A stretch of DNA of 64,000 bases from Rhizaria sp. SCN 62-66 (GCA_001724265.1 MEDY01000220.1:1-64000), one strand, 5' to 3'; numbered from the stretch's first letter, positions 10,708 to 47,752 are shown. Numbers and translations: made by a program. Notes: generated from the sequence alone by a model not told the origin.

Positions 10708-13401
10708 TTACTGCTTCTTGTCCTTCTTGTCCTTCTTCTCCTTCTTCTCCTTCCCCACCTTGCCCTTGCCCTTGCCACTTGCCGCCGCCGCCGCCGCAGC
10801 GGCCGCGGCGGCCGCAGCATTCTCGAAGCGCTCCTCGGCGATGCGGCGGGCCATCTCGTCCTGCAAGTTGCCGCTGCGGCCTATGCGGCCCAGTTGCACC
10901 GCCGCTGCCACCCCGCCCGCAGAGTCCGTCACCGCGGCGGCGACGGCGGCGGGCTCCGCGGCAGCGAGCTCGGTGGCCGCGGCGGGCGCAGCGCCAGCAG
11001 CACTGTCGCCGGTACCGTCGCCGCTGTGGTCTCCGTCGCTGACTTCGCCGGGCGCGACTGCGCGCGTGTCGCCGTAGTTGTACCCGTCGCCACCCACCAT
11101 CAGCGCCTTGCCGCCCGTCTTCTTCACCGACGTGGCCGCACCCGCAGACGCAGCAGGCGCGGGCGCTGCGGTCGCAGGCGCAGCTGCAGCGCCAGTCTCA
11201 GCGGCTGTGAGTTCGAGCTGGAGCTGGCGGATGGCCGCGTCGGCCGCGGCGGCGTTCTCGATCTTGTCCCGCGCCGCCTCGGCCGCGCGCCCGCGCGCAA
11301 TGGCGCTGTGTGCGGCGGCGCGCGCTTGCTCGCGCTCGGCGCGCAGCGCGGCGTTCTTGCTCGCGGGCTTCGCGCGGGGCGGCTTCGCGGCGCCGGAGGC
11401 GGCGGCACCAGAGGCGTCGGCCGCAGCGACAGAGCCAGCGCCAGCACCAGCAGCCGCCGCAGTGTCATGAGAGGCGACTGCAGGGAGGCCTGCAGTGTTG
11501 CTGGCGATGGTGGCGTGCTCGGGGCGCACAGCGGCGATGATGCGGCCGAGCCCCTTGGTGGAACCGTCGCGGAAGAGGAACACCTCGCCGGGCCGCATCA
11601 GCTCGGGCTTGTTCATGAAGCGGATGCGCACGCGCGCCGTGTCGCCCGTGACGAGGCTGCTGCGGCCCTCCTCGAGCTGGTCGATGGCGGCCGCCTGCCG
11701 CACCGTGCCGCAGTGCACGACGGCCTGGTAGCAGGGCCGGATCGTCGTCGGGTGATGCAGGATCACGACGTCGGTGTCGTACGCCCACGCCGCCACCGGC
11801 GCCGCCGCCGGGTCCACCAGCACCATGCCGTGTGTCACAAAGCTCTTGCCCAGCTCCGCGGGCGCCGCCACGATCGCGACCCCGGTCTCGGCCGCCGCGG
11901 CCGCCGCAGCGCGCGCGCCGCCCGGCACAGGCTTGAGGGCGAGCGACACGGCGTCACCGGCGACGCCGACGGCAACGCGCACGCGCTTGCAGTGGATGCC
12001 GCGCACGGTCACCTCGATGAAGGCGCCACGCTTGTCGGGCCCCAGCAGCAGGCGCTGGTTCTGCGTGATCCGCCCCGCGGTGACGGTGCCCGAGACCACG
12101 AGTCCCACGCCAGAGACCTGGAAGCGCTCGTCGATGCGCAGCTCCGTCGGCGCCGCCAGCAGCGCAGCCGCCGCCGCGGTCGCCGACGCAGTCGTCGCAG
12201 CACCAGCAGCGTTGCCTTCAGTCGCAGCGCCAGCGGCAGTCGCGTCGCCCGCGCTGCCCGCGGCAGCGCCAGTGAGCGCGAGCGTGGACGCGGCCTCGAT
12301 GGCGGCGCAGCGCGGGGGCGCGAAGCGCGAGAGGTACTTCTGCAGCAGGTCGATGTGCTGGCCGGTGACGGACGACACGTAGAAGACGGGCGTGGCGCGG
12401 AACGTGGCGTCGGCGAGCACCTTGTCGACGTCGGCCTCAGAGCGCACCGTCACGGGCAGCTTGTTTGCCTGGCGCGACTTGAGCACGGCAGTGAGCTGCT
12501 CCTTAACCTCCTTAAGGTTGTTGTCGAACGCGCGGTCGATCTTGGTGACGACGACGCAGAGCGGGAGGTCGAGCGCGATGGCAATACCCAGGTGCTCACG
12601 CGTCATCTTGGTCACGCCCGCCTGTGCGTTGACGATCACCAGCGCGAGGTCGGGGAAGCAGCCAGTGAGGCCGGCCACCGTGGTCTTAAGGTAGCGCGCG
12701 TGCCCCGCCAGGTCGATGAACGTCACGATCTGGCGCGCCTTGGCCACGACCGCCTGCCAGGCCTTGGTCTTGGCCGCCGCCTTAGCCGCCGCGGCGACCG
12801 TGTTGAACACAGGCTTGCCCGCGGCGTCGAAACCGGTGATGTGGTGCGAGATCGCGCTCGTGCGCCCGTTGTCCAGCTCGTGCTTGTACTGCAGCACCTT
12901 GGCGCGCGCCGACCCGCGCGCGTTGTCGAGCGCGCCCGCAGTGAGCACGCCGATGAGCGTGGACTTGCCGGCGTCGACGTTGCCCACCACGGCCACGCGC
13001 ACGTCGCGCACGCCCGCACCCAGCGCGCTCGTCAGCGGCGCGCCCGTTGCAGCGTCAAAGAGACCCGCAGTCGAGCCCGCGGTCGGCGCAGCGGTAGCGG
13101 ACGCAGAGGCAGCGGCCGCGCTCTTGATGTTGGTGTGGGTGTTGTTCATCGCAGCAGTGATTACGGCGCTAACAGAGGCGTTGGTCACGTTAGAGATCGC
13201 GTTGGCAGCGCCGGCGTTGGTGTTAGCTGCCGAGAGCGTGGGAGCGACGTTCTCGTTGGCAGTCTCGCTGTCGCTGCCGTTGTCTGCGTGCGCGTGAGCG
13301 TCGACCGCAGGAGTCGAGGTGTTGGTGTTGGTGTGTGAGTTGTTGTTGGCAAGCGCCGAGCGCTAGGTGTGCGCGTCGTCGGTAGCTATGCGGTTCATCA
13401 T
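10708..13401 (-). CDS. GTPBP1/GTPBP2-family translational GTPase, ~897 aa if the TAG at 13365-13363 is sense (otherwise starts near 13149); ends TAA
   Basis: VAVVGNVDAGKSTL, LDNARGSAR, HELDNGRTSAIS, TFIDLAGHARYLKTT, VVVTKID, EF-Tu-like domains II/III (ILHHPTTI...QAVVHCGTVRQAA). An upstream ATGATG at 13401 is in frame across one TAG. Confidence 0.92.
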
Positions 13402-14060
13402 CGTGTTCAAGTTTCTGTGCTCTGTCGGGTTAGTTCAGTCTAAACGGTTAGTGAAGAGACTGGGGCTAATGGACTTCGGCAGACACTTTGAACTACAGCT
13501 GCGCGAGCGAGCGAGGACAAACAATCAAAGGTCGCAAAGGCGAGGAGCAAGACGTATGAGTATTGGAGTACGAATACGATGGAAGTGTAATTCACGACAG
13601 TAACAACCAGATTCCCAAGGAGATCTTGCTCTGTGAGTCGGGTTAGGCCCAATCTTCGTCAGTTTAAGGAGCAGGACGAGAGAAGAGACATCTGGAAGGG
13701 GGAAGCGAGTTGGATCTCGAGTGAATCCGAGCACAAGCTTTGGGATATCAGGTGTCGCTAAATAGCCATCATAATTAAATCAGCAGTCAGATCCCCCTTA
13801 TTAAAACCGTGTTGGAGGCAAGTGCGAATAAGTTGCCGATTAGTTATGGCGCAATTCTACGGCTTCAAAACCGCCAATCACCCATTTTGTTTTGTGGTGA
13901 AACATAGGTGCGCGAAAAAATCGTATGTGGTCAGAATTTTCACGATGCATATCTCCATGGTATTGAAATAAAAACATATTAAACTTTGTATTGTAGTCAT
14001 TCAAGCACAGAAATAAACAATTATCTTTGTTATAGTGATACGTGTAGTTGGTCAATGACG

Positions 14061-17000
14061 TTACATGTAGTAGTCTGGCACGGAGGGGGGCTCCTCACTG
14101 CGCTCTGTGTCGTTACCAACCCCATTGCTGCCAGCATTGCCGTAGCGCGAGGTGGACAGGACACTCGCGTTGTTCTCATATCGTACCCTGCCGGTGATCT
14201 CACCCTCAGACACGCCGCTGCCGGTGTACATCGAGTTCTCGGCCCACCGGCCGGCCGGACGTCGCCCCTGAGCGGCGTTGTTAGAGTTGCCGTAGTTGTA
14301 GTTGTTGTTGTAGTTGTTCGTGGAGCCGGAGCTCGAGGCCGAGGGGGACGGCACGGCCCACATGCCGCCTAGCCCCTGCCCCGACCCCTGCCTCTGGTGA
14401 TAGTGCTGCTGCTGCTGCGGCTGCTGCGGCTGTGGCGGCATCGCGCTCACGTTGTTGCCACCGCCGTAGTAGCTGTTGCTGGCGTCTGCGTAGCTCTCGT
14501 CCCCGTACGTCAGCCCGCGCGCGTGTCCGCCGCTGTGGTCGACGCGGCCCGACAGCTCACCCTCGGAGCGCGGCGTGGCCTGACGCGAGCGGCCCACGAA
14601 ACGGCCCACGTAGCGCCCCGTCGTGGGGGAGATGCGGCCCGAGACCTCGCCCTCGGAGCGCGGGGTGAAGCCGCCCGGGACGCCGCCGTTGTTCCAGTCT
14701 CTGTCTCTGTCACCGTAGCCGCCACCCGCGCCCGTGGCGCTGCCGCGGACGCGTTGGCCGCGGCCGCGGTGCGCCATCGGCGCTGACGTGAGATCGATGT
14801 AGCTGTCGTTGGCCCCGGCACCGTAGCCGTCCTCGTTGTCGCCGTCCTCGTACTCGTTGCCGTCGCCGTCGAGGCGCGCGCGCGAGTGCTGCCTGCGGCG
14901 CCGCGCGGGCCCCACGCCGCCGCGGTCGCCACTGCGAGGCGGCGTGCGCGGCGCAGGCATAGCGAAGCCGGCCGCGCGCATGGCGGCCACAGTGACGCTG
15001 TCGAGGCTGGGTGCTGAAGTCACGCTGCCCGTGCCCACGCTGTCGACGTCACTGTCGCCGCCACGACCGTGGCCGGGGCCGCGCTTGCGCTGGTGCTTGT
15101 ACCCAGGGCTGAGCGCGAGGCCGAACATGTCGGGCGCGGCGGCGCGCAGCGCGGCGGCCTCGTCCGCGGGCAGCTCGAGGAACGGGTGCGTGCTGTCGTC
15201 GGGCGCGAAGATGCGCGGGAACCCGTTGCGGTCCACGAACACCTCGCCCTCGGACAGGTCCAGGTCCAGCGGCACCGAGTTTGTCGTGCGGGACGCGGTC
15301 GACTCGTCGCCGGACGCAGAGCCCAGTCTCCCGAGTCCGCGCACGCCGGTCGCAGAGAGCCAGCGGGCGCTGCCCGCGCCGGCGGGGCCGACTGCGTCGC
15401 TCTGCCCCGCGGCGTCGGCGACGACCGTGGTGTCTGTATCGCTGTCGCCGGACCCCGTGGCCCGCGCCGCGCGTCGCTGCCGCGCCGTGATCTTGGCGCC
15501 CGGGGAGAGGAGCTTGCGGCGCTCGGCCAGCGACGCGCGCAGCACAGCGAGCTCCTCCTCGAGGCGCGCCACGGCCTCTTGCTGCGCGGCGCTGGCGGCG
15601 GCGGACTGCGCCTCGAGCTGCGCGCGCAGAGCCTCCATCTCGGCGCTTTTGTCGGCCAGCGCCTGCGCCTGCTTGCCGAACTCGGCGCTCAGGGCCTCGC
15701 GCACAACCTCGGCCGTGGCGCGCGCAGCCGCGCCCGGAGACTGCGGCTGCTGCGCAGCGGCGTCGGCGCGGGCAGCGGCCAGGTGCGCGAGCGCGGCGCG
15801 GAGGTCGTCCTGCACCGACTTAAGCTCTGCGGCCGCCGCGGCCGTCTCGCGCCCGTGCTGCGCCATCGCGGCCGTGACAGTGTCGGCCACCACGGCCTGC
15901 AGCTGCGCCGCGCGCGCGGCCTCGGCCTCCTCGGAAGCCGTCAGCGCGGACCGCGGCACCGTGACGTTGCTGCTGGTGCTGCTACCGGAGAGCACGCGCG
16001 CGGCGTCCTCGACGAGGCTGCGGTTACGCTGCTCGTCCTCCTCCTGGCTGCGGCGCGCGCGCTCGGCCTCTGCGAGCGCGAGCACAGCCTGCCACTCCTG
16101 GTCGACCGCGCTCTCGCCGTCGACGACCGCGGAGCGCGAGACGTACGCCGCCAGCTCCGCGTCCGACAGCCGCGCCAGCGCTTCCGGGGACAGCATGCCC
16201 AGGCGCGACACCGCGGAGCCGAAGCCCAGCCCGGCCGCGCCAACGGCCGCCATCGAAATGTTGCCCGCGCCGCCCGTGAGCGAGTTGTTGGCGTCGAGCC
16301 CCAGGCCGAGCCCCGCGAGCGCCATCGAGCGGTCCACAGCGCGGCGCAGCGCACTCGCACTGTCGTCGTCGCCGTTGCCGTTGCTGCCGTTGCGGCGGGC
16401 GTCGTCGAGCAGGCCCTGGAGCGAGGCGACGAGCGTGTTGGCCTCGCGCGTGGCGGCCGCGCCGGGCCCGTGCGCGCGTGCGGCGGCGGCGGCGTCGCGG
16501 CGCGCCACGTCGAGCACGGCCTGCAGCACCTCGGCCGTGCGCGGCGTGACGTTGGCGACCGAGCTGCCGTCGCTGAGTCCCGAGGCGTCGCTGCCGTCCG
16601 CGTCCGAGCTCGTGCTTGTGTCCAGCATAGACGCATCCAGCCCCTTGCCCTTGCCCTTGACGCCCAGTCCGGCGAGCGCGCGCGCGAGGGCGCCGTCCTT
16701 GCCGCCGCTCTTGCCATGGCCGCGACCGTGGTCCTTGCCGTGGCGGCCGTTGCGCGCAAGCGTGCGGTTGTGCGAGCAGTCGCCGCAGAGCGAGTCGTCC
16801 GAGTCGGACGCGAAGGACCGCGCGGTCGAGTCGCCGCTGTTGCTGCCGCTGCTATCGGCGCTGTCGCGTGAGAGCTCGCAGCTGCAGTCCGCGCACACGC
16901 GGCGCGCACGCGTGCAGTTCGCACAGGCGTCGTCGCCGCCGCACTCGCGGCAGCTGCAGTCCGCCGCGCTCGCGGCCTTGCTGCCCGGGGCGACCGTGAG

Positions 17001-20000
17001 CGCGGTGCCCGCGGCGGCGTTGACGGGGGCGGGCCCGTCGATGTCGACTTCGGCGTCGAAGGCCTGGGGCGCGAACTGGCGCGCGTACGGGTGGTAGAGC
17101 GCGGTGAGCTGCGCCAGCAGCGCGGGGTTCGTCTGTCCCAGCGCCGCCAGCGACGCGGCCGTAGGCACAGCGCCGCGGCCGCCGCTGGAGCTCGCGGCCG
17201 CAGCGCCGGGCGCCATTGCGGCAGCGAGTGCGGCCAGAGCACCGCCGTCAGTGCCGTTGCCGCTGCCGTTGCTGTCGCCACTGCTGTCGCCGTTGCCGTT
17301 GGCGCGGGCCGTGACCGCGGTCTGCAGCGTCTCGAGCAGCACGCGCAGGTTGTGGTCCGCGAGACTGGGTCCCGGTGCGGGCGCGGTCACGATCACGGGC
17401 CCGTGCGCCCCGGCGGGGCGACGCAGGGCCAGCACGGGCTCTGTCGTCGTCCAGCCGTCGGAGTCCGCGGCGGCGGCAGGCAGCGTCACCGCGCCCGTCT
17501 CGGCGTCGACCGTCGCCTTGGCCACGCGCGAGGGCAGTACTGTGCCGTTGCTGCCAGAGCTGCGGGCCGGGGGTACGGAGGCAGAGAGAGACTTATTGAT
17601 GCCCGTCACACCGGCGTTCTTGCCCGCGGTGCCGATGACGCCGCCGCGCACGGTGGGCCGCGTCACACTCTTGCCCAGCCGGTCGCTGTTGGCGTTGTTA
17701 CTGCGCGCGTTGGCCGCGATCGCGGCGCGGCGGTCGGCCGTGGCGCCCGCCTCGGCGACGGCGGCCGCAGCGGAAGCGGGCGGCGCGGGCGCCGGGAAGG
17801 CCAGCGCGGGCGGCATCGACGGCAGATTGTACATGGGCTGAATCGGGAGGATCTGGGAGAAAGACGCCGACGCGGCGTACTTGCCGTTGGCGCCCACACG
17901 CGCACCGGCCTTGGCGCCCGCTTTGCGCACAGCCGGGCCAGCGTTGCTAGCCGCAGCACTGGGCTTGGCGCCGGCGGTCCGGGCGCTGGCGAGGGCGGCC
18001 CCGCGCTCTGCGGCGCCCGCGGCCCGGCGCGCGAGCGAGATGCCGGCCCCCGCGGCGCCGGAGTCGTAGGCCACGGCGCGCGCGCGGGCCTCCTCCTTCT
18101 CGAGCAGCAGCGCGGGGTCACGGCACAGCTGCTGCGTGCGCCGCAGCACCTGCTCGCGCATGCGCGCCAGGCGCCGCGCGTCGTCGGCCGCCGTCGCAAG
18201 CGCGCTCGTCTCGGGATCCAGCAGCGGATCCAGACCGAGCGGACCCACGCGACCGCCAACCACGGCCGCGCTGGCGTTCGCAGCAGCAGGCGGGGCAAGC
18301 TCATTTGAGGCGTTCTGAGGCGGCAGAGAGGAGGCCAAACCAGCCTGTTGCTGTGGGTGCTGAGCTGTGCGGTCAATCTTGGGTCCGCTGAGCGAGGGCT
18401 TGGTCACGAGCGCCTCGGAGACGGCCTGCTCAACGGCGCGCGCGGTCGCAATGCCCACAGCAGCACCCATCGCATCCCCGCCAGCGCCCGTGCCAGCGCT
18501 GATAGCGGGCGCGCTGGCGTTAGCCGCCGCCGTTGACGCGGCCGCAGTCGCGCTCGTGGTGGCGCGGTTAATGCGCTTGAGCGCGCTGGCGGCGGCGTCG
18601 GCGACGACTGCGCCGATGGCCTCGTCCCTGCGCCGCGCCCGCACGTCGGCGCCGTGCTGCGCCACGATGGCGTCAGCCTGGGCCGCCGCATGCGCGCGTG
18701 CCTCGGTGATCTCGGCCTCGAGCTCGGCCTCCTCCTCGGCGTCCTCGGCGCCCTGCGCCGCGCCGCCCAGCGTGCGGAAGGCCGAGTCGACCGCGGCCTG
18801 CGATGCGAGCTCCCCGCGTGCCAGCTCGCGGCCCAGCGCGGCCAACACGCGCACGCGCTCCTGCGCCGCGTCGTAGTCGAACCCCGTCACCTTGGACCGG
18901 AACGCATTGGCCGATTGCACCGACTGCGGCGGCCGCGCGAAGCGCTGCGGCTCGCGCGTCGCCGCGAGGTAGCGCTCCAGGTCCTTGACGGCCTCAGCGC
19001 CCGACGAGTGGCTGCCGCGCTGCGCGGGGAGCGCAAAGGCCGCCTCCCACAGGTCCACGGTGCTGCGTTCTTCTGCCGCGGCCGCGTCGCCGTAGCCCGC
19101 GTTGCCCAGGGAACCCGTGGGACCGGTGAGCTCGGCGCCGCGGGCGGAGGACGACGAGGACGGGGCGCCGAGCCCGGCCACGGTGGGCGCCGCCGCGCTG
19201 CTGGCAGGGCCATTGCCAGCCTTGTAGGCCGTGGCAGAGCGCTTGGAGAGTGCCCGCTTCGGGTTCGAGGGGCCGATGACGCCGCCCACAGTCACCTTCT
19301 TCCCGTTCGCACCGGTGCTAGCACCAGTCGCAGGCGCGGTCGCGGTCACAGGCGAGCTTGCGCTGGCCTTGTCACTGCTGCTGCTGCTGCTGCTGCTGCT
19401 GCTCGCGTACGTGTTGGTGTTGGTGGGCAGGACGGAGCGACCGCCGCCGCCAAGGCCGCTGTGCGCGCGCAGAATAGACTTGACACCGCCACCGCCACCA
19501 TCGCCGTTCACAGTAGCGTGGGCGTGAGCGTACGCGTCGGGGTTGGGGTTCGGGGCGCCATTGCCCGCGCTACTGCCGCCGTAGTAGTACGCACCCTGCG
19601 CACCGGAGCTACCGCTGCCGATGCTGCTATTGGTGCTGGGGACGCCGGTGTAGTGCTGCGTCTTGAGCGCACGCTGCTCCGCCTCCGAGGCCGAGAGCAC
19701 GTGGAGGTCGCCTCGGTCGACGTCGCGCCGACCGGTGTCGCGGCGGCCAGAGTCGCCACCAGAGGACGGGGCGCTGCCGCTGCTGCTGCTGCTGTAGTCG
19801 GCAGGGTGACTGGGAGCAGCGTTGTATTGACCGTGGGCAGGGTGACCGTGAGCAGGGTGACTGTGGGCAGGCTGGGGCACGTGGGGAATCGTGCTGGCGG
19901 TAACGCCATGAAATGGCATGTTGCTCATATGATGAGCGTGCATGTGGCTACCAGCAGTCGCGTTGCCGCTGTGAGCGTTGCTGTTGCTGCTGTTGGCCGC

Positions 20001-21656
20001 GAGCGGGTGCGAGACAGGTGCGGGAACACCGCCAGCGCTGACGTGAGCATTAGCAGCAGCAGCAGCGGCAACATTAATGTTCTGGTTGGTGTTATTGTTG
20101 TTCGCGGCAACCCACGGCAGCGACGACTTGCGCCCTGTGTTGACACTGCTAGCCGCGCCCGCACTGCTCGCGTCCTGCGTGTTATCAACAATGCCGTTGC
20201 TGTTGCTGTTGCTGTTGCCCCTGTTGATGATGTTGTTGTTGTTGCCTGCCGCGCTCTTGATGCCCATGCGGCCCTCGATGCGCGCGACGCGGCGGCCGTC
20301 CTCGTCGCGCTCGCTGGCGCGCATGCGCTCGCGCAGCTGCCGCTCCAGGCGGTCCAGCCGCGAGCCCAGCCCCTGCTCCAAGGCATCGGACTCGGACTCG
20401 CCGTACGTTTGGCCGTGGGCGGCGGCGAGGTGACCGTGGGCCGCGGATTGACTGTGGGCAGAGGCGGAGCCGCTGTAGGCGGCAGTGGCTGCGGCCAGGC
20501 GGGCGTTGGCCGCGGCGAGCGCGTCGTCGGCCTCAGCGTGGCTGCGGCCAGCTTGAGTCGCCGCAGCAACAGCAGACATCGGATGCGAGTTGCTAGAGAC
20601 CAAGGGCTAGGCGGCGTCGAAGTTAAGCCGCGCCTCGAGCGCCGCGTAGACGGACGACGCGCGCACAGCAGCAGCGCCCGTCGCACTGCCAGCCTGCGCA
20701 CCTGCGTTGTAGCTAACAGTCGCATTGCCGATGTTGCTGTTGTTGCGGGTGTCGTTGTTGGCAAGGAAGCGCTCGACGGCGGCAGCGGCGCGCGCCGAGG
20801 CAGCAGCGGTCGCGGACTCAATACCACTGGCATGCGCCTGAGCGCCCGCCCTACTTACGCTGGAGTTAGAGCTAGAGCTCGAGCTAGAGAGGGTGGGGCC
20901 GTGGCCGTGACCGTGGCCGCTGTGTCCGTTACTGTGGCTGGAGGGCGTGAAGGCGTGGTCGTTGCCGCCCATAGCGGGGCCATACGCGCGCAGCGGCGTC
21001 CCCATAGACACGCGATTGTTGTTGCTGCTACTCGCGGTAAAGATGCTATTATTTGCACTGAAGCTGCTGTTATCGTGAGCATTATTGGCGTTAGCATCGG
21101 CATTGACGCTTTGAGCGAGCGCGGCGGCGCCCGCGTGCACGGAGCCGGCGAAAGGCGTGCGGAGCCACTCCATCTCCCTGCCAATGCGCTCGGCGTGGCG
21201 CTCGCGGCCCAGCGCGGCGAGCGCGCGCTCGACGCTATCCGCGGCCGGGACCGTGGCGGCGTCGATAGACCGCACGGCCGAGAGCGTGTCGGCACGGCCG
21301 GCGCGCGTCAGCAGCGACTCGATCTCGGAGGAGCTGGCGCGGTCGATGGAGCTGAGCGTCTGGCGCAGCTCAGGCACGTGGCGCCACGGCAGCGGCATGC
21401 GCTCGGCGGCGGGCAGCCCCGGGAAGTCGCGCAGCCCGGCCACGTTCTCGGGGTCCAGGATCGTCGCCGCGCAGACAGACTCCAGGGCCGTTGCCAGCTT
21501 GCCGCCGGAGAGCACAGCCGCGCGCGCCGCGGGCGCCGCGGAGGGCTCCAGCGATATCACCACGGGGCGGCGGTGCGCGGGGTGCTCGGACTCGGGGCGC
21601 CGTGCGGGCGCGCGGGAGGGCTTGGGATCGAAGGCTGCCACGGTTTGGCGTGACAT
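14061..21656 (-). CDS. Very large low-complexity/coiled-coil protein of unknown function, ~2530 aa, with in-frame TAG at 20609-20607; ends TAA
   Basis: Track ORFs 20607..21704 and 14061..20603 share a frame and are separated only by TAG-CCC. GC3 codon bias is uniform on both sides. Coiled-coil segments, a Cys cluster and C-terminal SEGE repeats are present. The 5' end is uncertain (possible upstream exon; AG acceptor near 21664). Confidence 0.75.
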
Positions 21657-28797: not shown

Positions 28798-31700
28798 TCA
28801 CACAGCGTCACTGTTGCTGTTGCTGTTTACACCGTGATTACTCCAGATGCAGTTGTCATCGCTGCAAGAAGCGCAGCGGCCGCCGCTGCGGCTACTGCTC
28901 CGACTGCTGCCTCTGCTGTTAGTGTCGCTGCTGCAACAGCTACTGCGTACGCTGCCGACAGACTCAACCTCCGCCATGTCGCTGTGCACGCCGCTGTGGC
29001 CGTCGCTGTCGCTCTTGCTCCCCGGGCCACTGCGCCCGCTGCCGCCGCCGCCACTGCTCGCCGGCGGCGGCCGCCACGCCTGCCCCAGGCGCCAGCCGGG
29101 GCTCTGGACGCCGCGGACCACTGCCGCGGTCTGTACAAACTGCCAGAAGGAGCACACTGCGAAGCGGTACTCGGACCCGGACCACTTCTTGCAGCCGCAC
29201 TCCGCGCACCGCGCCGGCGGGTCCGCCTCGACGGCGTCGGCCACCGCCGCCGCGTACGTGTTGGTCGCGGGAGACAGGCAGCTGAGCGGGCGGCCGGGCG
29301 ACGAGCCAATGCCCCAGCCAGTGCGGGAGCAGCTGCTCGCGCCAGGCACAGGCACTGTAACAGCCACAGTTGCAGTTGCGGGGGGAGTTCTTGTGACATT
29401 CACAGGGGCCGTCGCGGTGGCGCCATGATGCAGCTGCTCCTGTTGTTGCTGGCTTCTAGTCGTTGAGTTATTTGCTAAAGCGAGAGGAGTCTCGTAGCCC
29501 TCCGTTTCGCTCATGTTAATGCTACAGTTGCTGTTGCTATTCTTGCTGAAGCATTTGCTGTCACAATCACGAGCGGGACAGCTCGGCTTGACATCACCAC
29601 TGCCACTCTTGTTAGCGTCAATGCAAACACTTGTACTGCGCGGGCGCTCACCCTCGCCGTGACTCCCCGCACGCGCACGCGCAACAGCCACACACGCAAC
29701 AGTCGCACATGTTCCGCCTAAGCCACTGTTCGCCTCAGTGCTCTTGATGTGTGATGGCTTCACTGGAACAACAAATGCACTCGGCGTGTACAAGTACCTT
29801 GCCAGCAACGGCGGGCCCTCAAGTGACTGCGAGCTGTAGGGTGACTGCAACGCCTGTGACTCTGAGCTGTGAGGGTGCAGTGAGCGGCCGTGGCGGTGGA
29901 TCTCGCGCCAAAACGTATCTGCCTTGGCGTTTGCTTCTTTGCTTAAGATAATGCGTCGACAGCAGCGGCAGTACAGCGGCGGGCGCAAATCTGAGGGTGA
30001 TCGCTGTGTACACAGGGTTAACGACGAGGACGAATGGGGATGATCTTGGGTGGCTTTGGAGTCACAGTTAGTGGCATTGCTTGAACTGTGCTTGGAGAGC
30101 TCGATGGCACAGTGGAGCCCCCACCTCACATCGTTCTCGTCGACAACGTCAGTGTCGCAGCACGACATAACGCCAGCTGTCACCGCCGCAACATCAGCGT
30201 GATGGAACAAGCTCGCGCGCGCGTGGCAGAATCCGGGCTTGCGTCGCGTATTGCGCGTCAGCATCCACGTGTACTGCGACCACATGCTGTGCACCCACTC
30301 CAGAAGCTCTTGAAGAGCTTTCTGCGCTCTGAGCTTGGCAGTGCTGGCGGCAGAAAGAGAGCTTGAGCTCACACAATTATTACTGTGCGCGCTCAGAGTG
30401 ATGCCATCAAGAGTGTTCAAAAAGCGCAGCGCGGCGTGTAAGTCAAACGGGGAGAATCTCTTCGCCAGCGCCGCCAGCGTTGGGTCAGCCGTCCCTTTGG
30501 CAGGGCCCCTAAGCTCAATCGGACCAGCAATACAAGTTGCGCTTATAGCAGAATTTGCGCTGCTGGTGTTGACGTTGCCGTGCGACCACTGCGGGGAGAG
30601 AGCCAGCGCCAGTGGTCGAGGCGGCAACAACGGTACCGGGGGCTGGTGACCGCGGGCACTGTGGTCGTACTCGTAAGCCCAGCGTGTGTTGAGATGCAGA
30701 GAGCTTTGCTCATCGTTGCGCAGCAGGCTTGCCTCAGAGGTACCCGCTTCTCTTTCAGAGGTTTCGTCGCTGCTGCTTTCACTGTGTGAAACACGGAGCT
30801 CCTGCTGGTGCTGATGCTTTTGCGACTTCCTACTTACAACTGCCTGCTGTAAGAGTGTCTTCATTTGTGCCAAAGTAGGCGTCTTTTGTGCTGGTGCGCG
30901 GTCCGACACACCAAGCGACGGGACATAGGCAGGTTTCCAAAGCCGAGACTGAGCCTGCGCTCTCGGTGACAATGCGAAAGCTCCGCCTACAACATCAGTA
31001 TCGCCGCTATAGCTACTATTGAAAACCGAAATCGCGGTCTCGGTAAACGCATCTTGCTGTTTGAGTAGCTGCTGTTGCTGCTGTACAAGCTGCTGCTGCT
31101 GAAGTTGGTATAGTTGCGCAGATGTAAGTCCACTCGACACACGCGCGCGGTCACTGCTTGCACTGCGGTTTTGACCCCAAATTTGCAAGAGCTGTTCGTG
31201 CGGATCTGTAGCGCCTAGTGCACTATTGCGGCCGTCACTGCTACTCACACGCAGAGTCTTAGTACTTGCGTGACTGTTGCTGTACTCAGCGTTGCTGTTT
31301 CGAGATTGCGCTACCATATGATGGCTATAGCCAATGCGGATGTTGGGCGTGCCGTTAGAACCGCAGGGCACGCTATCGCTGGCGACAACCCTATTGCCTT
31401 CACCGCTGCTGTTACTGCTATCACTGCTGCAATATCCGCTCCGCGGCGCGTTTGAAGACGAGGCTGCTCCGATGCTAAGTCCTCCAAACGGTGCAACCGG
31501 CGACGGAAGAAGCGGCGGTCCATCGGCTGTGGTGCCAGAGGCTGCTGATACCTCAGCGGTCGATGCGCTGTGGAGCTCAATTGCATTGCTTTCCAATACC
31601 TCGGCCTGCTGTTGGTGAGGCGCCAACCGCGCCTTTTGCAAGCGTAACCGGAGTGCCGCAACAGCGGGCCCTAAAATCGATGTGGCTGGCTGAACCGGTG

Positions 31701-34700
31701 AGTTTATAGCGTTGCCATTATCCTTGCTGTTATCCGTAACATTTAGGCACGAGCTCGCGTCACGAGCAGACACGTCAGAACTGACTTCAGTCGGAAGATT
31801 GCTTTCATCAGTTGCACGCTTGTTCCTACGACCACTGTCGCGGTCGTGCTCAAGGTTGTCATGCACAAGCTCTCTCTCTTGTTCTGTGCGTTGCTCACGA
31901 TTGCGATTGTACCCTTGTCGACGCTCATTGCGCCTGCGGTCACTGTGCACGCGACCACTTTGCCTTTGGTCACCGTGCCCGCGATCAGCGGCTGTAGTTG
32001 CGAGAATATCCTCGGACAAACACTCACCCGAAAGTGCTGACGAGTTAGGGATTGTTTCCCACGGCAGAGGCACCAGAAGCAGAGAGCTAGTTGTGCTGCC
32101 CCCAGAGGTCGGCGATGACTGCGGTGCGCAGCCATTGGCAACTGCGGAGTCGGATGCCGCCTTATTACTTGCTGCACTGACAATGACATCGTGCACTGCA
32201 GTCGGCAGATTCAACGAAAGAGATGCAACAAGACCCGGCGCTCCACCATCACCAGAGTGGGAAATGTCTACACAATGGGTAACAGACGACGTGGCTACGT
32301 GGCCCAGACTGGTTCCTCCACTTACATGATTGTGCTGCGGACACGTTGATGCGTTCAAGGCAGAAGTTGTACTTTCATGAGCGGGCCGAATATTGTTGTT
32401 TGTAGGACTTTGCTGCTGCTCTTGCTGTTGCGTCTGCTGAGCCCGCAGCTCCGGCGATGTTACACGAACGGCGTAATTATGCGGTGGGTGCGCCCGTCCT
32501 GCACGCGCTTTGCTTTTGCGAACAGGTACACCAGTGGCTCGATCACTGTTCAGACTTGACACACTAAACCGTGACGTTTGAATAGCAGCTCGTACAATAA
32601 CGAACCCCGAGTTAGTGGAGCTAGCGTGATCTAGACTGTGACACGGGTTTGCCTTATCGCTAACATTTGCAACGGCATTGGAGTTTAACGGCAGTACCAT
32701 AGTTGCCGTTGCGATACCAGCAGCTTTGTCGGCGATAGGCACTGAGCTATTACTGTTTGTAATGTTGTTATGCACGCTAGCGCTGCGCGAGCGCGAACGC
32801 GCATGCACAGCTACAGGAGTGGCCGCACGGCGCGGCACTGCAAAGGACCCATGTCCACTACCAATAGTGGATGCGCCCTCATCGCCGTCACCAATTGGAA
32901 CCGAGAGTGCCGGCGCACTGCGGTCTCTCATTTCGAATGATGAGAGCTTAGACTCTGACGAAATCGTGAACACATACGGTGCAAAACGCACACGCTTGCC
33001 ACTTGCCGTTGTTGCAACGTTTGCGACAGAAAGGCTATGTGCCGATGACAAGTCGCTGTGACCGCTACCTGTATTGTTGTTTGCGACTGTGTTGAGAACG
33101 GGGAGCCCGGGAAAGTGTTGCGATGGTGCAGCTAAACTGGCGGGAGTAAAAAAGCGTCCTTGCTGATAGTGATGCTGCGGATAAGGGGAATGCGCCTGCT
33201 GTTGATACTGAGAGCTAGCAAAACTGCTGTTGTAGCGAGGCGTGCGCAGTAGAGACTGAAGTGGGCGCGAGGTGCTGTTGTGATAGCCAAGTGCAAACAT
33301 TGATGCTGTCGGTGCCAATGCCGTCGGTGATACAGAAAGCGCCAGAGCGCTATTTACGTGGGCGGTCTCTGTACCAGCTTCCTCTGTAGTGGTCGCAGTC
33401 AAAACATCTTCCGAGACGCCTAACGCCAGTGACGAGCTCGCAACAATCGGGGCCGTGTTGCACAGCCGCAGCGCTGTAAGGGGCTTTACGGCCATCGCAG
33501 CAGCAGTGATGGTCTCTGCCATCAGTTGCTGTGTTACGACTGAAGCTATCCGAGCCGGGATGGAGTTGGCCGAAACCGCGCACTCTACTTGGCAGTCACC
33601 AGTTGCTGTGTCAACAAGAGGAGCAGACCCGTCAACATATCTGAAACTGCTCTTGTGATGAGGGTTGCAAGATGTTGAGCTCAGCGCTAGTTCTGCTGTC
33701 GGTGTTACGTCTGCAAGCGTAATCACGTTTTCTGTTGCGGTGCTTGCGGAATCTGCAATTGCGTTATCATTCTTCGCTTGGGTTGATAGCAGGGCAGTAA
33801 CTGTGTCAGAAGCTTCATCTAAGAAGGAGAGGAGCGACGTCTTAGTGACATTAGTATTGACAGCATCGGCATCTGGCAGCATGGTGGCGTCATTTGTAGT
33901 CTCGCTAGGCTTTCTACCGGACGTGTGTAATGAGAGTAGTCCGCAAACGTTGCTTGGACTCATGACGCTGTCGGACAAGGCAGCAACATCCTGAGCTCGC
34001 AGTGCGCACTTAACATCACATAATCTGCTCACGCCAATGCCCGAGTCCTCGGTTAGCTGGAGCCCCGCGGAACGACGCAACGTTGAATCACTTGGAGGAG
34101 CTGGGGTGTCAGAATTGTTCTGTGCCGAGTTAACGTCACCAACAAGACTGTCACAGCAAGCTTCAGTAGCGGCAAATTTGTTGCTGCACACTGATGTAGT
34201 CTTGGGACTTCTGGCGCTAATCCCAGGAGCAACTGCGTCAGAAGTTATATTGGAGCAATCACGGTCAGTGTTAAAGCTGTTCAAACCCAGGCTCGACTCT
34301 TGTTCAGGCACACACTTATCGTGAGCGACGCACTTGGGTGCTTGATCTTTAGTGCCACATGGTTCATCGATAATGTCTGTGCTCTTGATGTTGCCATCCC
34401 CGCGCCTGTTCGAGCTGTTGACGACAGCGCAACCGTCACGGATGTTGTTGCTGATACTATTTCCGAACATTCGTTGCTCCCACGCTTGCTGCTTTAGCCC
34501 GCGTTCCACAAGGGAGATATAACTGCCAACCTGTACTGGTGCCGCCAGTGGTCTTGTCGAAAACGCACCCACGGGGTTTGTTGTTGTAGCAGCTACATGA
34601 GGCGTAGTAGCAAGCGGTTGCAACAAGCTGTAACTCGCTTTACCTTGCTGCGCAGCATGAGCATCTGAAACACTATAACATGCTACAACACTGTCAACGC

Positions 34701-36726
34701 CTGTCGCTAACGTTACCGTGTTGTTTGAGGGCAGGCTCGCAGCAGACCGGTTACGATTATGCCGTGTAGCCACTAACGCTGCTTTTGTTACCACACCATC
34801 GACAGTGAGCGAGCTACTGTTAAGCACCCCTTTGCCGTTTGGAAGGGCAAGTCCAAATGTGTTGTTGTTACTGCTACTTGAGCTGTTAGAAGCAAATGAG
34901 CTCACACCCCCAGAGCTCGCATTAAAATGAAACTCGTTGCGGAGATTCGTGCAATCATCACAATTGCATCTGTTACCATCAACAGGAACGCCTTGAAGGC
35001 GTAACGCATGCTGCCGACGTTGCTGCTCACAGCCACTTATCGCAACCGATGACTGCTCACTGTCGCCTGAACTTGTCTGGCGACTATTGTCCCATGCATT
35101 GCTAGATTGTTGACATAGGGTGGCAGCGGTATCACTAACATTAGAGCTGTTTGTTGCCACAATCTGTGTTGAGCAATCGCTCGTACTATTGATAACCCCA
35201 ATGAGCACATGCACTGTTGCAATCAACGCGGCGCGACAGCACTGATTCGCAAGGCCACACGCAACGCTAACAATATACAACGGAATTTGTGCTGTGCGGT
35301 AAAGAACGGCAGCTGAAGAAGGGATTAACGCGGCAACACTGCGTGGCACAGCAAAGTGTGCGATGCGAGAAACACTTGGCGTGCTGAGATAGGCGGCAAA
35401 TGTGGGAATCGAAAACTGTGCCGTCACATCAACACTAGTTGCGCTTACGCTCGCGCTAAGATAGCTGTGATGACTGCGAGGCTGGGTTTGAGGTGCAACG
35501 TTGCTCACTACACTAAATGGAGCAGAGTTGCTCACTGTGCTTGTTGCAGCAGTCGATGAAGCGCAGCTAGAGTCCGTCTATGAAGCTTCGCTGCGTGTGC
35601 GCGAGTGCGTGCGCGAGCGAAAGTGCGAGTGAGCGTGGTTTAGATGCGACAATACGCGTGAGCTATGACCATCTGTCACAGATGTGGCTCTTCGTGGTGC
35701 ATCTTCACAGGCGCTATGCGTGCCTGTGTCGCGACGAGAAGACGTGCGATTGCAAGCATTGTCTTTACTACCGCCCACACGTAAATCACTACTTTTCCCT
35801 CGTTGCGCGTTGAGGTTCCGCTACTGAAACTGTGTTTTTGCGCTTAATCCATGCGTAACTGTTGCAGCAAGGAAGGGTTGCCATAGTGTATGTGCTGCGG
35901 TGCTGAGCGCAAACGAGGCGGTCGCAGCCAGCGGCTCTAATGCCAAGTACGAAAACGACGAGAGCGCACGCGGTAGCGGCAGCGGAGGAAATGACGCAAC
36001 CGACGACTCGGAGTTTGACGACCCAGCTGAGTGAGACTGTGCCGCCAAGTCGCTGTGGCTATGCGCAGCGTTGGCGTGGCTGTCACTGCCCCCACCGCAG
36101 CTACCTCTGCGCACGCCCAGTGTACGCGTTGCTGCTGCATACGGCAACGCCGCAGAGTGAGACTGCGAGCTGCGGCGCGACTGTGGGCGCGATAGCGACG
36201 CTGGCAGCGAGCTCTGCAGCAGTGACTGTGAGCACGTATTGTTGACATCAGTCGCTAACATCTCGCAAGACGCTTGCGCACGGCCGCTACTAATCAACGC
36301 GTGGTTAGTTGCGCCGATGTTGCTGCGATTAGGAGTAGTGTCGGCGTTGGCGTTTGTGCAAAGACGTGCGATATAAAATACGATCCATTTGACTGTGAGC
36401 ACAGTGACGAGCCAACAGAGCTGACACAAACCGGACAGAAACACAATCACGGTCCGAAGCCAGCCAGAAGCACGTCTACTCGGTAGGCTGTGCGGTAAAT
36501 GCGTTATGCTTGTGTTTGTGCCACCGGGATGCGAAATCGGGTCGTGCGTCAAACTTGGGGACGATGCAGAAGGCAACACTTGGTCAGCGTTCGCTTGAGC
36601 GTTATGCCTGTCGGAGAGCAGTTGAGATGACACATCCGAGCGCGAGTAGTACGGCTAGGATGCAGATGTTGGAACGGAGTATAACGGTGCGCCGCTGAGA
36701 AAGGCTGCCGAGGTGAAACCTGGCAT
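28798..36726 (-). CDS. Giant Ser/Ala-rich protein of unknown function, ~2640 aa, with three in-frame TAGs (36657-36655, 35823-35821, 35580-35578); ends TGA
   Basis: From ATG 36726 a single frame runs through track ORFs 35821..36633, 35578..35778 and 28798..35535 with only TAG interruptions (linkers checked by hand). Contains a hydrophobic segment near the N-terminus, a KRVRF motif and C-terminal Cys pairs. Confidence 0.7.
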
Positions 36727-37396
36727 TTGGAGAAGAAGGCTGTTGCGGCGACTGTGGGGGTGATGAGTGGCCAAGGTCAAGGCCGCAGAAAACGAGCCCG
36801 GAGGCACTAGAAGTGAATTTCAAAGAGAAAATAGACAGTATAAAACAATTTTAGCGTTTGTTTTCAGTTGAAGCCCATGAGCGATTGTTGATCAAATCTC
36901 GATTCCTATCCAGGTTTCAAGAGATGATGTAAGTATGGGTCGAGCGGAGAGACTCCTTGTGAGTCAGAGACTTCGAATGAGATAATGGGATGGTAACAAG
37001 TGAAAGAGCAATTATAATTTCTGGATTATGCATTTGCAACATAATCTTACAATTACGTAGTTTGTAGGCTCTTGGTACGAAAATATGACAGTAGAATAAC
37101 CTCTGCAAAATCAGATCTCCTTCCAAGACATTACAACCACAAGTCGGTTTCTTGACTTGAAGCTTTGTCTCCAGCGAGCTTCAAGTTAATATATCAAAAC
37201 ATGTCGCGGTATATTGTAGTTTCCAAATCTTAACAATGTATTTTCAAACTAGTTTAAATTATTTCACCTTCATATCTCTTTAAGACAAACATACACACAC
37301 AAATTATAATCTCTTGACCATCAGCTTTAGCTCACATACACCTAATCTGGATCAAAACACGGAGTACAACACAAGCATCAAGTATCACGCGAGTCT

Positions 37397-40300: not shown

Positions 40301-41904
40301 ATGCTGCTGCTGCTGCTCTTGCCCAAACTGCTGCTGATCTGGGTTGCGGTGCGCTGCAAACGGTGCCGGCGGCGGCGCAAAAGGCTCGGGCGCAAAGTGC
40401 GGGATGTATGGCGTCAGCGGCGTGCGTCCCATCCCAGAGCCTGCACGAGCACTGGGAAAGACGTACGGATTGCCATGATCAGGACCGTGCATAGGCTGCT
40501 GCTGCTCGTGTAACTGAGGCTGAAACGGGAACGGCTGCAGATACGGGAACTGCTGCTGCTGGTCGGTGTGCTCTTGCTGCTGCTGCTGCTGCTGCTGCTG
40601 ATGCTGCCGTGGGGGAAACAACCCGACGCCACTGACACCGGTACTCGCGTACATGCTCGCACTCGTGTGTGCGTTTGCGTTTGCGTTAGTAAGCGCAGGC
40701 AGCGCCCGACGCACCATGTTCGTGGCCACAGCGCTGGAGCCCAAGGGCGCAGTTAGCGCGGGGAAGTGCTGGAACACGACTGCGCGCGCCAGCTGCACCG
40801 CCGCGGCACTCGCACTCGCATCGTAGCCTCCAATGTTGCCGTCAAAGCCGTTGAAGCCGTGATTGTTGTTATTGTTGTAGTCATGGTGCAGTAGTGCGGA
40901 GTGGCCGCCGCGCGCCCCACTGTGTCCTAGCAGCCCGCGGTTGTGGCCATTAACACCGAGTCCGAGCAGACACGAGTCAGCCGCAGCCGCAGCGTCACCC
41001 CCGGCCGCCGCTGCTGCAGAGGCCGCGAGAGCAGAGCCGCGGTGCCGCGTGAACATGTCGCTACTGAGCGGCGGCGCGGTGCCACCTGCAGCGCCCGCGC
41101 CGTTGCCTGCTGGGTCGTCCACTTCGCCGTTGCCGTTGTGCGTTTGCGTGTGAGTGCGCGCGTGAGAGCGCGGGGGCGAGGTCAGCGCATGCGTCGTGAG
41201 CAGCAGAGAGCGGCGCAGGCGCTGCACATCGAGACTTGCGCCCGCACTTGCGCCGCCGCCACGGTCGCCGCTGCCGCCGCTGCTGCTGCTGCGTCCCGCA
41301 GAGCCAGAGTCAAGGCCGTGGTCAGAGTGAGAGCGAACAGTGGAGCCGCTTGAGGCTGCGCGAAAGCGGTCGCTGAGGCGCGCGCGCAGGGAAAGCGGTG
41401 CCGAGCGGGTCGACGCAGCAAGCGCTTCGTCTAGAGTGACATTGTTGCGGTGACGATGCCGCTGCCTGTTGGGGTCTGCGATCGGGTTGTCTCGGTCGGA
41501 GTCTGAGCTGGCCGCTTCGTCGCCGTCGAGGTCGTCGCCGCAGAGAAGCTCGAAGGCGGCGCGGCCACGGACGACAGGAACGTTCTCAGACTCGCCGACT
41601 TGGGGCTGCGTCGGGGGCGCGTTTTCGCTACTCTCGTCTGTCACGGGAACTGCAGCGGGCGATTTGGGAAGGGCTGCGGCGCGCGCTTCCGCTGCGATTC
41701 GTTGCTCAGCGAAGAACTTCCTGTGACGAGGAGCAAGATAGACAGACAAGGGGTCGATGAGAGGATGCCACGTCTTCAGCGAGACTGAGTGACAGTCATA
41801 TATAGTCAGCAGATAGCCGAAATAAAGGAAACGTACCGTTGCTTGGAAAGCTCGGAAGTTGAACGCTGCTGAGCGCGCATGCGACTACCACCCATCCAAT
41901 TCAT
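37397..41904 (-). CDS. HEIP1/REDIC1 (C12orf40)-like protein, ~1463 aa; exons 41904-41837 and 41720-37397; ends TGA
   Basis: The spliced N-terminus MNWMGGSRMRAQQRSTSELSKQR|KFFAEQR matches the family motif as I recall it (MNWVGGSR...RKQKEYFEK). The rest is long and disordered (Gln/His/Pro-rich), as in that family. Confidence 0.72.
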
Positions 41905-42168
41905 ATTGGAAAACTGCCTACAGAGCCCAACAACGACCGCTAAAGGGCAGTTTAAAAAATAAATGAATGTTAAAATAAGCACACATGCCCTATCAATTAG
42001 ACTTTAAAATCCTATACCCTCCGTAAGGTAAATGTGAAGCTATTTTCGCAGGTATTGTGTCACGTAATTATTTTTCAAGTTGCACCTGAAACCTCGAAGC
42101 TGAACTTGGGAGCTGAGACGATTTCACGAGCAGGCGGCTAACTTTGAGCAACCATTTTGCATACGTAG

Positions 42169-45445: not shown

Positions 45446-47752
45446 ATGAGTGCCCCTCACCGAGGCCCTCCTGGCGGTCATGCCCGGCCTTTCACTGCCG
45501 CCGGGCGATCCCGCGAGGACGCTATCTCTCTTGACAGCGACAGCGAGGACGGCGAGGACGGTCTCCAGGCGCAGGCCCGGCCGCTCGGCGACAGCCAACG
45601 GGCCGCTCTGACCCCTGCGGTGCCCAGCCGCGACCAGTCGCACCAGGGCGGCTACAGCAACAGCAGCAGCCAGACGCAAGGCCAGCGCACCACGGCAGCC
45701 CGTACTGTGCCGCAGTTGAGTGACATCGATAATGACGACAATGACGATATATGCGAGTTGCCGCTTGACGACTTCGTCAGGAAGCCAATCCCAGTCCGCG
45801 TACGTGCTTGTTACATCAATAACTCATCCATATATGCATGTTTTCAAATTAAATCTTAGGACACGGTATTAAGACACGTCAAATGTATGATACTTAGATG
45901 AAATTGCCACACCACTTTGTCATGCCATTATAATTCCTGTTCGCACTCATGCATCCTTCTTGTCCCGGTCCTCTTGCGCGCTCTCTCTCAGCGTGAAGCC
46001 CTCGTCGGCCCCCTCAGCTACGAGGTCGCCCCGCGCACATACGCACAGTCGCGCCCGAAGCGCCCCTCAGACCCCGCCGCGCTCGCCCACGACGGCCGGG
46101 ACTACCTGCAGCAGCAGCGGCCCGCGCAGCCGCGGACGTCATCCAACTCTAACGCCGGCGCCGGCGGCGGCAACATCGGCGCTGCGGCGGGGTACGGCAG
46201 CGGCGCGGGGCTGAACGCGGCGCTGGCGGCCGCACTGGGCGTCGGCGACAGCTGGGAAAGCCACCCGACGCTGCACTCGCGAGGCGCACACGGAGAGTAC
46301 ACAGACTACAGTGATCAGACCTACAAAGGCGGCGGCGGCGGCGGTGGCAGGGTACCCAGTCAGAAGGAGCTGTGGGAGCAGCACGAGCGCGAGAAGAGCG
46401 AGCGCGAACAGTACTACGCGCGTTTGTATCAGCAGCGGCAGCAACAGCAGCAGCCGCAGCAACCACAACAGCATCAACGACAGTCGCCAGCAAAGCAGCA
46501 TTTGCAGCCACTGCCACAGCAACAACAACCAAGGCAGACGCAACAACCTAAACCTGAGCAACTGCCGCAGCCTCACGAAGCCAAGACTCCGCTTAGCCAG
46601 AGCCAGACGCCGCTGCCAACCAGCTCGAGTCAGGACTTCGCGCCGAGCGCGCTGTCGAAAGAGCCGTCGCTGTCGTTCACGGCCACGTCTTTATCGTCGC
46701 TGAAGCTCCAGCCCATCCCTCTGGACACCGTCGACTCTTGCAACGACTCTTGGGGTGCTCACAGTACTGCAACGTCTATCCGCACAGCCGTCTCAGGCGA
46801 CGGCGCTAACTTGAACAGCACTGCCAGCAGCTCCACCGCCACCGCCGCGGGCCCGGGCCTCGGCCTCGGCCTCTCGCTCAGCCGCGTCGACACCGGCGCC
46901 GACAGCTCCACCCAGAGTCACCCCCTCGGTCACCCTTCCGGTCACGGCGCCGCGCCAGCGCGCCAGTACTGGCCGCCGCAGTGGCTGCTGGCGCCGGAAC
47001 CAGCCGCCCCCGCCCAGGCCCCGACCGCCAACTCAAGCTCTCTGACGACCAAGGCCGCGAAGAAGCCCCCGTTGGGCTCTATAGGCACACGCCTTGCCAC
47101 AGCCGGTGACACACATGCATCTACGACTGTGTTTGCAAGCGCGCCTACGATAGCGCCTGCGACGGCGAGCGTGCTGGTCATGCTACCCAACGGCTCGCGT
47201 GTGGTCCGACGCTTCCCCCTCGCACTGCCGTGCTGCGCGCTGTACCGCTGGGCGCAGCTCGAGGCGCGCCGCGCGGCCGCCGCGGCGCGCGCCAAGCGGG
47301 AGGCGCTGCGCACGGCGCGGAACCCTTTCTTGCCAGAGACACACGCGCTGCAGCCTGCCGTGATGGCGCGCTCGAGGGCCGCGACGCCGCCCAGCCACAT
47401 TCTCCAGTACCAGAGTCAGAGTCATCGTCACGCGACGTCGCCGACTGGAGCGTCTGCTGCGGCACAGTCGTCGCAGACGCAGTACTTGGACCGGAGCTAC
47501 TTAGACCTGTCCGAGGAGCCGGCGCCGTTCTTACTGTGGACACGTGTGGCGCCACGGAAGCAAATTCCCGCGCCTGTGGCCGTGGCTGCGGCGGCCGACG
47601 GCGTCGGCGGCGAGGGCGAGTGCTTTTGCTGCGATGTCGCGATGAGCGGCGACGCTTCGGGGGCGACTGCCGGCGCGTGTCCCGCCGGCCACAGCACCAT
47701 TGGGTAGATGAGGCTCAATGGGAGCACGCTGGTTGCCGAGGAAGCGGACTGA
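45446..47752 (+). CDS. UBX-domain p97/Cdc48 adaptor, ~704 aa; exons 45446-45799 and 45992-47752, reading through TAG 47705-47707 to TGA
   Basis: VRKPIPVR|REALV motif. UBX strands SVLVMLPNGSRVVRRF...LYRWA...FLLWTRVAPRKQI...STIG*MRLNGSTLVAEE; the last UBX helix/strand lies after the TAG. Confidence 0.78.

Follow-up and report, generated by a model that had tools for sequence, protein, structure and literature searches.

In-frame TAG codons in a 64-kb window from a wastewater protist suggest a UAG codon read as sense beside terminating UAA and UGA

The stretch MEDY01000220.1:1-64000 (GCA_001724265.1, Rhizaria sp. SCN 62-66; its full 64 kb is called the window here) is eukaryotic DNA of about 60% GC with spliceosomal introns, and it carries six TAG codons in frame in four genes that otherwise run on without interruption. 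We consider it probable that UAG has changed here from a stop to a sense codon, with UAA and UGA kept as terminators. An earlier note, made from the sequence alone, had proposed such a UAG-only code variant. Translation of TAG together with termination at TAA and TGA indeed proved to be the best reading of the window; this reading covers about 16 genes, and a genome-wide change of the code, which the note had also implied, is beyond the reach of that sample.

UAA and UAG nearly always change meaning together, and cases in which UAG alone is affected are still few. If the reading is true, the window would add a second rhizarian case, from a common engineered habitat. The sparse, end-biased use of TAG would then also bear on stop-codon capture, in which the codon is lost from gene ends first and afterwards comes into rare, poorly tolerated use as sense.

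Coding sequence around the in-frame TAG codons

The TAGs had been placed by the earlier note on the minus strand at 13365-13363, 20609-20607, 35580-35578, 35823-35821 and 36657-36655 and on the plus strand at 47705-47707, with the flanking residues T*R, A*P, S*T, Q*R, S*P and G*M, respectively. All six were found there and with these neighbours. The affected genes and their TAG codons (asterisk in the context) are:

10708..13401, minus strand: GTPBP1-like GTPase gene of 897 codons with TAG taken as sense, ending in TAA at 10708-10710; Pfam GTP_EFTU, E-value 2.1e-28
13363..13365, minus strand: in-frame TAG, codon 13 of the GTPBP1-like gene, context T*R
14061..21656, minus strand: 'Big', a low-complexity orphan gene of 2531 codons with TAG taken as sense, ending in TAA at 14061-14063
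20607..20609, minus strand: in-frame TAG, codon 350 of 'Big', context A*P
28798..36726, minus strand: giant open reading frame (ORF) 1, of 2642 codons with TAG taken as sense, ending in TGA at 28798-28800; GC content at third codon positions (GC3) 0.55
36655..36657, minus strand: in-frame TAG, codon 24 of giant ORF 1, context S*P
35821..35823, minus strand: in-frame TAG, codon 302 of giant ORF 1, context Q*R
35578..35580, minus strand: in-frame TAG, codon 383 of giant ORF 1, context S*T
45998..47752, plus strand: last exon of a weakly UBX-like gene, ending at TGA 47750-47752 if TAG is read
47705..47707, plus strand: TAG, context G*M, 15 codons before the TGA of the UBX-like gene; a sense codon or a true stop

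Typical genes of the window have an extreme codon bias, with a GC3 of 0.86-0.92 and, per 1000 codons, 33.9 CAG vs 2.7 CAA and 57.6 GAG vs 3.2 GAA. Gene annotation relied on codon log-odds learned from five confident genes. In the GTPBP1-like, 'Big' and UBX-like genes, which share the typical bias, the coding signal extends up to the TAG and past it.

For the GTPBP1-like gene, whose nearest relatives are 43-46% identical and align over the core only, the 71 codons from TAG 13365 to the next ATG (13149) scored +58.0 vs −50.7 ± 30.1 for null windows, and none of the 15,523 null windows reached this value. Since these 71 coding-like codons contain no ATG, translation must enter the frame upstream. 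The sole in-frame ATG that could serve them is part of an ATGATG at 13401-13396, which is located 12 codons upstream of the TAG and has an A at −3. Between this ATGATG and the TAG there is no GT dinucleotide, and the 650 bases upstream hold no ATG-bearing exon with a consensus donor.

The 349 codons upstream of TAG 20609 in 'Big' scored +175.7 vs a null of −246.9 ± 120.3 (reached by 0 of 14,714 null windows) and are followed in the same frame by 2181 codons at +0.53 per codon, the next ATG coming 10 codons past the TAG. Two same-frame genes 27 bases apart would be odd, because gene spacings in this genome amount to hundreds of bases. 'Big' matched no Pfam family, and a search with its N-terminus found only the window's own 2172-residue fragment. 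One of the strain differences described below, the single-nucleotide polymorphism at 21477, falls upstream of the TAG in 'Big'; it is synonymous, at a third codon position, and gives the single hint of coding constraint in this upstream part.

The first 783 codons of giant ORF 1 contain three TAG, no TAA and no TGA, with 27 and 47 stops in the other two frames; when this 5' part was shuffled, none of 20,000 shuffles was free of TAA and TGA. The stretches that follow the second and the third TAG (80 and 369 codons) have no ATG and so cannot be separate ORFs. Hydrophobic stretches resembling membrane helices occur between and after the TAGs.

A position within coding sequence is thus borne out on both sides, by coding signal or by the exclusion of TAA and TGA, for TAG 20609, TAG 13365 and the three TAGs of giant ORF 1. 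For TAG 47705 such a position is suggested only. The TGA is the 15th codon after the TAG, as previously noted. The 14 codons in between scored +3.3, a value reached in 5.7% of null windows, whereas every one of the 15 accepted stops is followed by 42 bases with a negative score. The drop in GC content comes after the TGA and not after TAG 47705. The UBX match itself is below the Pfam cutoff (E-value 0.07-0.27) and spans profile positions 5-39 of 82, short of the TAG. With the TAG read as Q, E or L, neither the last 30 nor the last 77 residues of the protein gave a UBX match. Its C-terminus, compared with 1.84 billion representatives, retrieved only the window's own protein, cut at the TAG; a PDB sequence search with the protein returned nothing relevant; and a single-sequence AlphaFold model was poor at the C-terminus, with a predicted local distance difference test (pLDDT) score of 27-38. 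The run 'T-I-G-x-M-R-L...T-L-V' may resemble the C-terminal motif of UBX.

Stop codons across the window

In 18 chosen segments of coding sequence (CDS), with a few small exons omitted, we counted 6 TAG, 0 TAA and 0 TGA in 15,767 codons; this count is partly circular, as the ORFs had been delimited by TAA and TGA. We also scanned both strands without such bias for stops with coding-like, stop-free flanks on both sides, and obtained two sites, both TAG (20609 and 50046), and in the whole window no TAA or TGA of this kind. Count and scan both agree with the earlier claim that no gene is interrupted by an in-frame TAA or TGA. Stop-free flanks alone are uninformative in GC-rich DNA, where many off-frame stops likewise have long open flanks. 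We took TAG 50046 to be a false positive, its score being marginal and its frame antisense to the CH-domain gene. With about 0.4 per 1000 codons, TAG is rare in the CDS.

The stop tally given by the earlier note (11 TAA, 3 TGA plus the UBX-like TGA, 0 TAG) was reproduced independently. TAA ends the ArfGAP, EF-hand, ATP-citrate lyase (ACL), GTPBP1, 'Big', SNARE, RRP4, RING, coiled-coil and CH-domain genes and one small gene (n = 11), and TGA ends giant ORF 1, the Q-rich gene, the MMADHC gene and the UBX-like gene, the last if its TAG is sense (n = 4). TAG ends 0 of the 15 genes, or 1 of 15 if the UBX-like TAG is a stop. Some apparent stops are intronic, e.g. TAA at 5880 and 2003, and the final tally of gene ends is unaffected by them. 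TAA is strongly preferred (11/15 gene ends) despite a GC3 near 0.9, and G follows 8 of the 11 TAAs.

Introns and assembly at the TAG positions

Splicing could remove a TAG from the message, and we checked this for each of the six; none has a credible intron around it. The eleven introns that we recognized in the window start with GTACGT, GTTCGT or GTATGC, have 0.40-0.51 GC and are roughly 90-230 bases long, with one exception in GC content, a 561-base span at 0.61 that was set too wide and runs into coding sequence. The donors that occur upstream of the TAGs are weak ones (GTTTG or GTATG), and the introns that they could open have 0.49-0.67 GC and poor acceptor sites; for two TAGs, no donor at all falls in the permitted intron range of 40-450 bases. 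We rejected introns as an explanation for the TAGs, there being neither consensus donors nor an intron-like composition.

The letters of the TAGs were checked in contigs of four sequencing runs (X1, X4, X6 and X7), which were compared with positions 20000-39999 of the window. The contigs of X6, a run from an independent study, show no difference across TAGs 35580, 35823 and 36657, and its contig over TAG 20609 matches as well, but lies there only 25 letters from its end. In none of the four runs do contigs join at a TAG; the joints listed are low-complexity repeats.

Interpretation of the in-frame TAG codons

If UAG is a sense codon here, it would be translated as an amino acid, and termination would be left to UAA, the preferred stop and mostly in the context TAA-G, and to UGA. 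The decoding could be done by a tRNA with anticodon CUA, one anticodon change away from a standard tRNA, which would read UAG and not UAA, and eRF1 would be expected to recognize UAG poorly or not at all. The rarity of TAG and its location mostly near the starts of long, fast-evolving genes would fit a reassignment that is young or works inefficiently, with a low cost for TAGs early in a gene. As to the inserted amino acid, we can offer guesses: glutamine, which the earlier note took to fit best, would be favoured by the abundant CAG-to-TAG route and by the polar contexts, and leucine by likeness to the known rhizarian case discussed below.

Several observations weigh against a change of UAG to sense. 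A tRNA scan of the 64-kb window found no tRNA gene, and thus none with anticodon CUA, and there is no eRF1 gene among the genes of the window. None of the six TAGs stands at an alignable conserved residue, the TAG-bearing regions being orphan or low-complexity sequence. TAG is absent from ACL (1071 codons), from the CH-domain gene (1342 codons) and from the MMADHC, RRP4 and SNARE genes, as well as from giant ORF 2 (3237 codons), despite the relaxed codon use of the latter. Five of the TAGs fall within the first 15% of their CDS (codons 13/897, 350/2531, 24/2642, 302/2642 and 383/2642); by simple arithmetic, such 5' clustering of five out of six has a probability of about 4e-4 under uniform placement. 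It could fit an inefficiently decoded codon at positions where early termination is cheap, and equally well real starts lying downstream. TAG 47705 could be a true stop, because 5.7% of null windows reach the score of the codons behind it and the UBX assignment is below the Pfam cutoff. The absence of TAG from 15 gene ends is weak evidence, since the sample is small and TAA dominates; TAA likewise dominates in Guttulinopsis, a rhizarian taken as having the standard code, in which nearly all known gene ends are UAA (PMC5304391). Contigs of a polyA 'RNA' run cover the putative introns of the SNARE and RRP4 genes without gaps and unspliced, and the TAGs lie outside their cover, so that they provide no transcript evidence on splicing or editing. 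Finally, the assembly contains at least one probable error in repeat length (27147-27190).

Under the standard code, the TAGs would be real stops or untranslated, and the proteins would start at ATG 13149, 20579 or 34470, or end at 47705; the coding-like parts upstream would belong to upstream ORFs, to N-terminal extensions lost not long ago or to exons of wrong gene models. We regard this as fairly unlikely. It agrees with the 5' clustering and with a plausible stop at 47705, a downstream ATG leaves a long ORF in all three 5' cases, and the GTPase domain is intact from ATG 13149. Introns and ATG-less exons, which occur in the Q-rich and the UBX-like gene, can moreover mislead a plain reading of ORFs. 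The standard code nevertheless fails, mainly on the GTPBP1-like and giant-ORF cases: it leaves unexplained the 71 strongly coding-like, ATG-less codons after TAG 13365, for which there is no donor or feeding exon upstream, and the three consecutive TAG-separated stretches of giant ORF 1, two of them ATG-less, in a frame free of TAA and TGA. It also requires a 349-codon gene that ends 27 bases before the next same-frame ATG. It is improbable that about 16 genes would include three such accidents and that TAG, never TAA or TGA, would be involved each time.

Alternatively, TAG might have a dual or leaky use, eRF1 still ending some genes at UAG and readthrough by a suppressor or near-cognate tRNA preserving TAGs in cheap positions. 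Such use would account for five of six TAGs in the first 15% of the CDS and the sixth 15 codons from the end, and for the great rarity of TAG even in the giant ORFs (3 and 0 TAG vs 50 and 32 CAA in giant ORFs 1 and 2), and ambiguous stop/sense codes are reported for Condylostoma, Parduczia, karyorelict ciliates and Blastocrithidia. Against it, no gene of the window clearly ends in TAG, and with a leaky stop at codon 13, most initiations on a conserved GTPase gene would come to nothing. We judge this explanation unlikely; about 16 genes do not separate it from full reassignment.

Nonsense mutations in decaying genes (e.g. CAG to TAG), or wrong bases in the assembly, would be expected to lean to TAG, as CAG is the commonest one-step precursor of a stop, and the assembly is uncertain at the GGC repeat at 27147-27190. 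We nonetheless hold pseudogenes and errors to be very unlikely: the contigs from the independent study have the same letters at 35580, 35823, 36657 and, close to the end of a contig, 20609; the three affected large genes, with about 6,000 codons, show neither a frameshift nor a TAA or TGA besides their TAGs; and a conserved GTPase broken at codon 13, with two or three more broken genes in about 16, would be unlike a living genome. The least credible explanation is correction of the TAGs in the transcript, e.g. by adenosine-to-inosine (A-to-I) editing of UAG to UGG, for which the TAG-only pattern speaks and nothing further. In some filamentous fungi, A-to-I editing of transcripts from the sexual stage acts mainly to rescue UAG codons and would yield such a pattern, but we know of no mRNA editing of this kind in Rhizaria, and the two base differences that were seen between contigs are synonymous strain variants, U>C on the mRNA and not at TAGs.

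If UAG is indeed sense, genes of this genome are already being split or cut short by gene callers set to the standard code: the public 'Big' protein is the 2172-residue fragment, and the public UBX-like protein is cut at the TAG.

Relation to known UAG-only codes

Reassignment of UAG alone is a known kind of code change, and one rhizarian is among the known cases; if confirmed, the present organism would be a further one. The suggestion in the earlier note that the case is perhaps undescribed may hold for the organism, but not for the kind. The note also overstated the rarity of the phenomenon, as more lineages are reported in PMC11687900: the uncultured rhizarian, Iotanema, Scotinosphaera (Ser), Protocruzia and several phyllopharyngean ciliates. 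According to the same paper, UAG uncoupled from UAA is read as Gln, Leu or Ser depending on the lineage, which indicates a repeated origin. A search of the literature on alternative codes in Cercozoa, Sainouroidea and metagenome-assembled genomes of wastewater eukaryotes found only Panek et al. 2017 (PMC5304391).

The rhizarian described there, Rhizaria sp. exLh (Sainouroidea), reads UAG as Leu. Its 71 genes with in-frame UAG hold 384 such codons, many of them at conserved Leu, and its stops are 56 UAA and 15 UGA; eRF1 shows little change in its N-domain motifs. The window resembles exLh in its in-frame UAG and in the use of UAA and UGA as stops, at 11 TAA:4 TGA compared with 56 UAA:15 UGA. 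The supergroup is probably shared, judging from the ACL tree described below, which places the organism no more finely than in Rhizaria, and sainouroids are faecal-associated, with the window coming from wastewater and bioreactor samples. In contrast to the abundant UAG at conserved Leu reported for exLh, there are six TAGs here in about 16 genes and none in ACL and other conserved genes. The same source argues that anticodon CUA pairs with UAG and not with UAA, and that a low abundance of UAG can conceal reassignment in small samples. A more specific scenario, which we put forward tentatively as possible but doubtful, is an early or inefficient capture of UAG in a wastewater cercozoan with a GC3-rich genome and a strong preference for TAA, in which TAG has gone from gene ends and is returning as a rare sense codon, mainly at gene starts and extreme ends, where premature termination costs little; this would make it a second rhizarian case, independent of the exLh lineage, and a natural snapshot of UAG uncoupling from UAA.

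In Iotanema spirale (Fornicata), UAG means Gln, UAA and UGA are stops, and UAG makes up about 8% of the Gln codons, as stated in PMC5304391. That code is likewise restricted to UAG, with UAG as a minority codon; it differs in belonging to another supergroup, in being known from a transcriptome only, and in having Gln fixed by conserved columns, whereas none here holds a TAG. The phyllopharyngean ciliates, Protocruzia and Scotinosphaera are ciliates and a green alga, whose codes were derived genome- or transcriptome-wide with tRNA evidence, and not from the genes of one window as here. The ambiguous codes of Condylostoma, karyorelicts and Blastocrithidia share with the window that the position of a codon would set its cost or meaning, the TAGs here avoiding the middle and late parts of genes. 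In those codes, UAA and/or UGA are reported to be involved as well and the codons to be frequent, unlike the window, where TAG only is affected, is rare and has no clear use as terminator.

Other genes of the window

The remaining features to which the text refers are:

5484-9257, minus strand: ACL gene with at least two introns; true stop TAA at 5484-5486
26078-28145, plus strand: RING-finger gene with a frame change inside a (GGC)n repeat of 91% GC at 27147-27190
54288-63998, plus strand: giant ORF 2, more than 3237 codons, running off the window; no TAG

The frame change in the RING-finger gene is probably a repeat-length error of the assembly rather than an intron, because the contigs of the likely source run break exactly there. 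Contigs of runs labelled RNA span putative introns unspliced within 20000-39999.

Upstream of the Q-rich gene, whose start exon was not located, two further in-frame TAGs lie on the minus strand at 41700-41992, in pyrimidine-rich DNA before a probable CACAG acceptor. We set these two TAGs, at about 41.9 kb, aside, since the surrounding sequence makes it most likely that they are intronic or in the 5' untranslated region.

Giant ORFs 1 and 2 differ from their neighbours in GC3 (about 0.55 vs 0.86-0.92), have a negative codon-bias score and are rich in S, T, N and A; neither matched a Pfam family. They could be weakly expressed proteins of the surface type or recently acquired DNA.

The first intron of ACL lies between an upstream exon and 'LVVKPD...' and ends in ...CTTAG; the second starts at CAG|GTATGC, which makes TAA 5880 intronic. 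A public ACL protein, P0001 (1004 aa), runs from a GTG within exon 2 into an intron, so that both true ends are missing from it. A relative that is 77% identical, P0002 from another metagenome, is without an intron at the second site.

The organism

An Rfam scan of the window gave no match and no rRNA. Our placement of the organism uses ACL, in a FastTree phylogeny of the 120 ACL matches listed, i.e. one gene and a biased sample. Among these matches, the ACL of the window first joins five other sequences (support 1.0), then one more (0.84) and then a clade that holds Mataza (0.987); at deeper nodes follow the chlorarachniophytes Amorphochlora and Norrisiella (0.972) and Plasmodiophora (0.976). 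The organism, an uncultured protist of wastewater and bioreactors, probably belongs to the Rhizaria (Cercozoa). The earlier note had called it a flagellate, for which the window offers no indication, the ACL tree giving Rhizaria/Cercozoa only. A metagenome scan with ACL returned 13 loci, all 49-55% identical; neither the contig of the window nor P0002 was among them.

Near letter-for-letter copies of the window DNA are found in bioreactor and wastewater metagenome runs, three of which, with shares of 0.98-0.99, may be its source, and the DNA is present too in runs of other studies, up to 2025. Over positions 20000-39999, the organism was near-clonal across studies and the years 2015-2025: the contigs showed two single-base differences in total, at 21477 and 38159. 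Both are synonymous third-position changes in genes of the minus strand, A>G when read on the plus strand and U>C in the mRNA.

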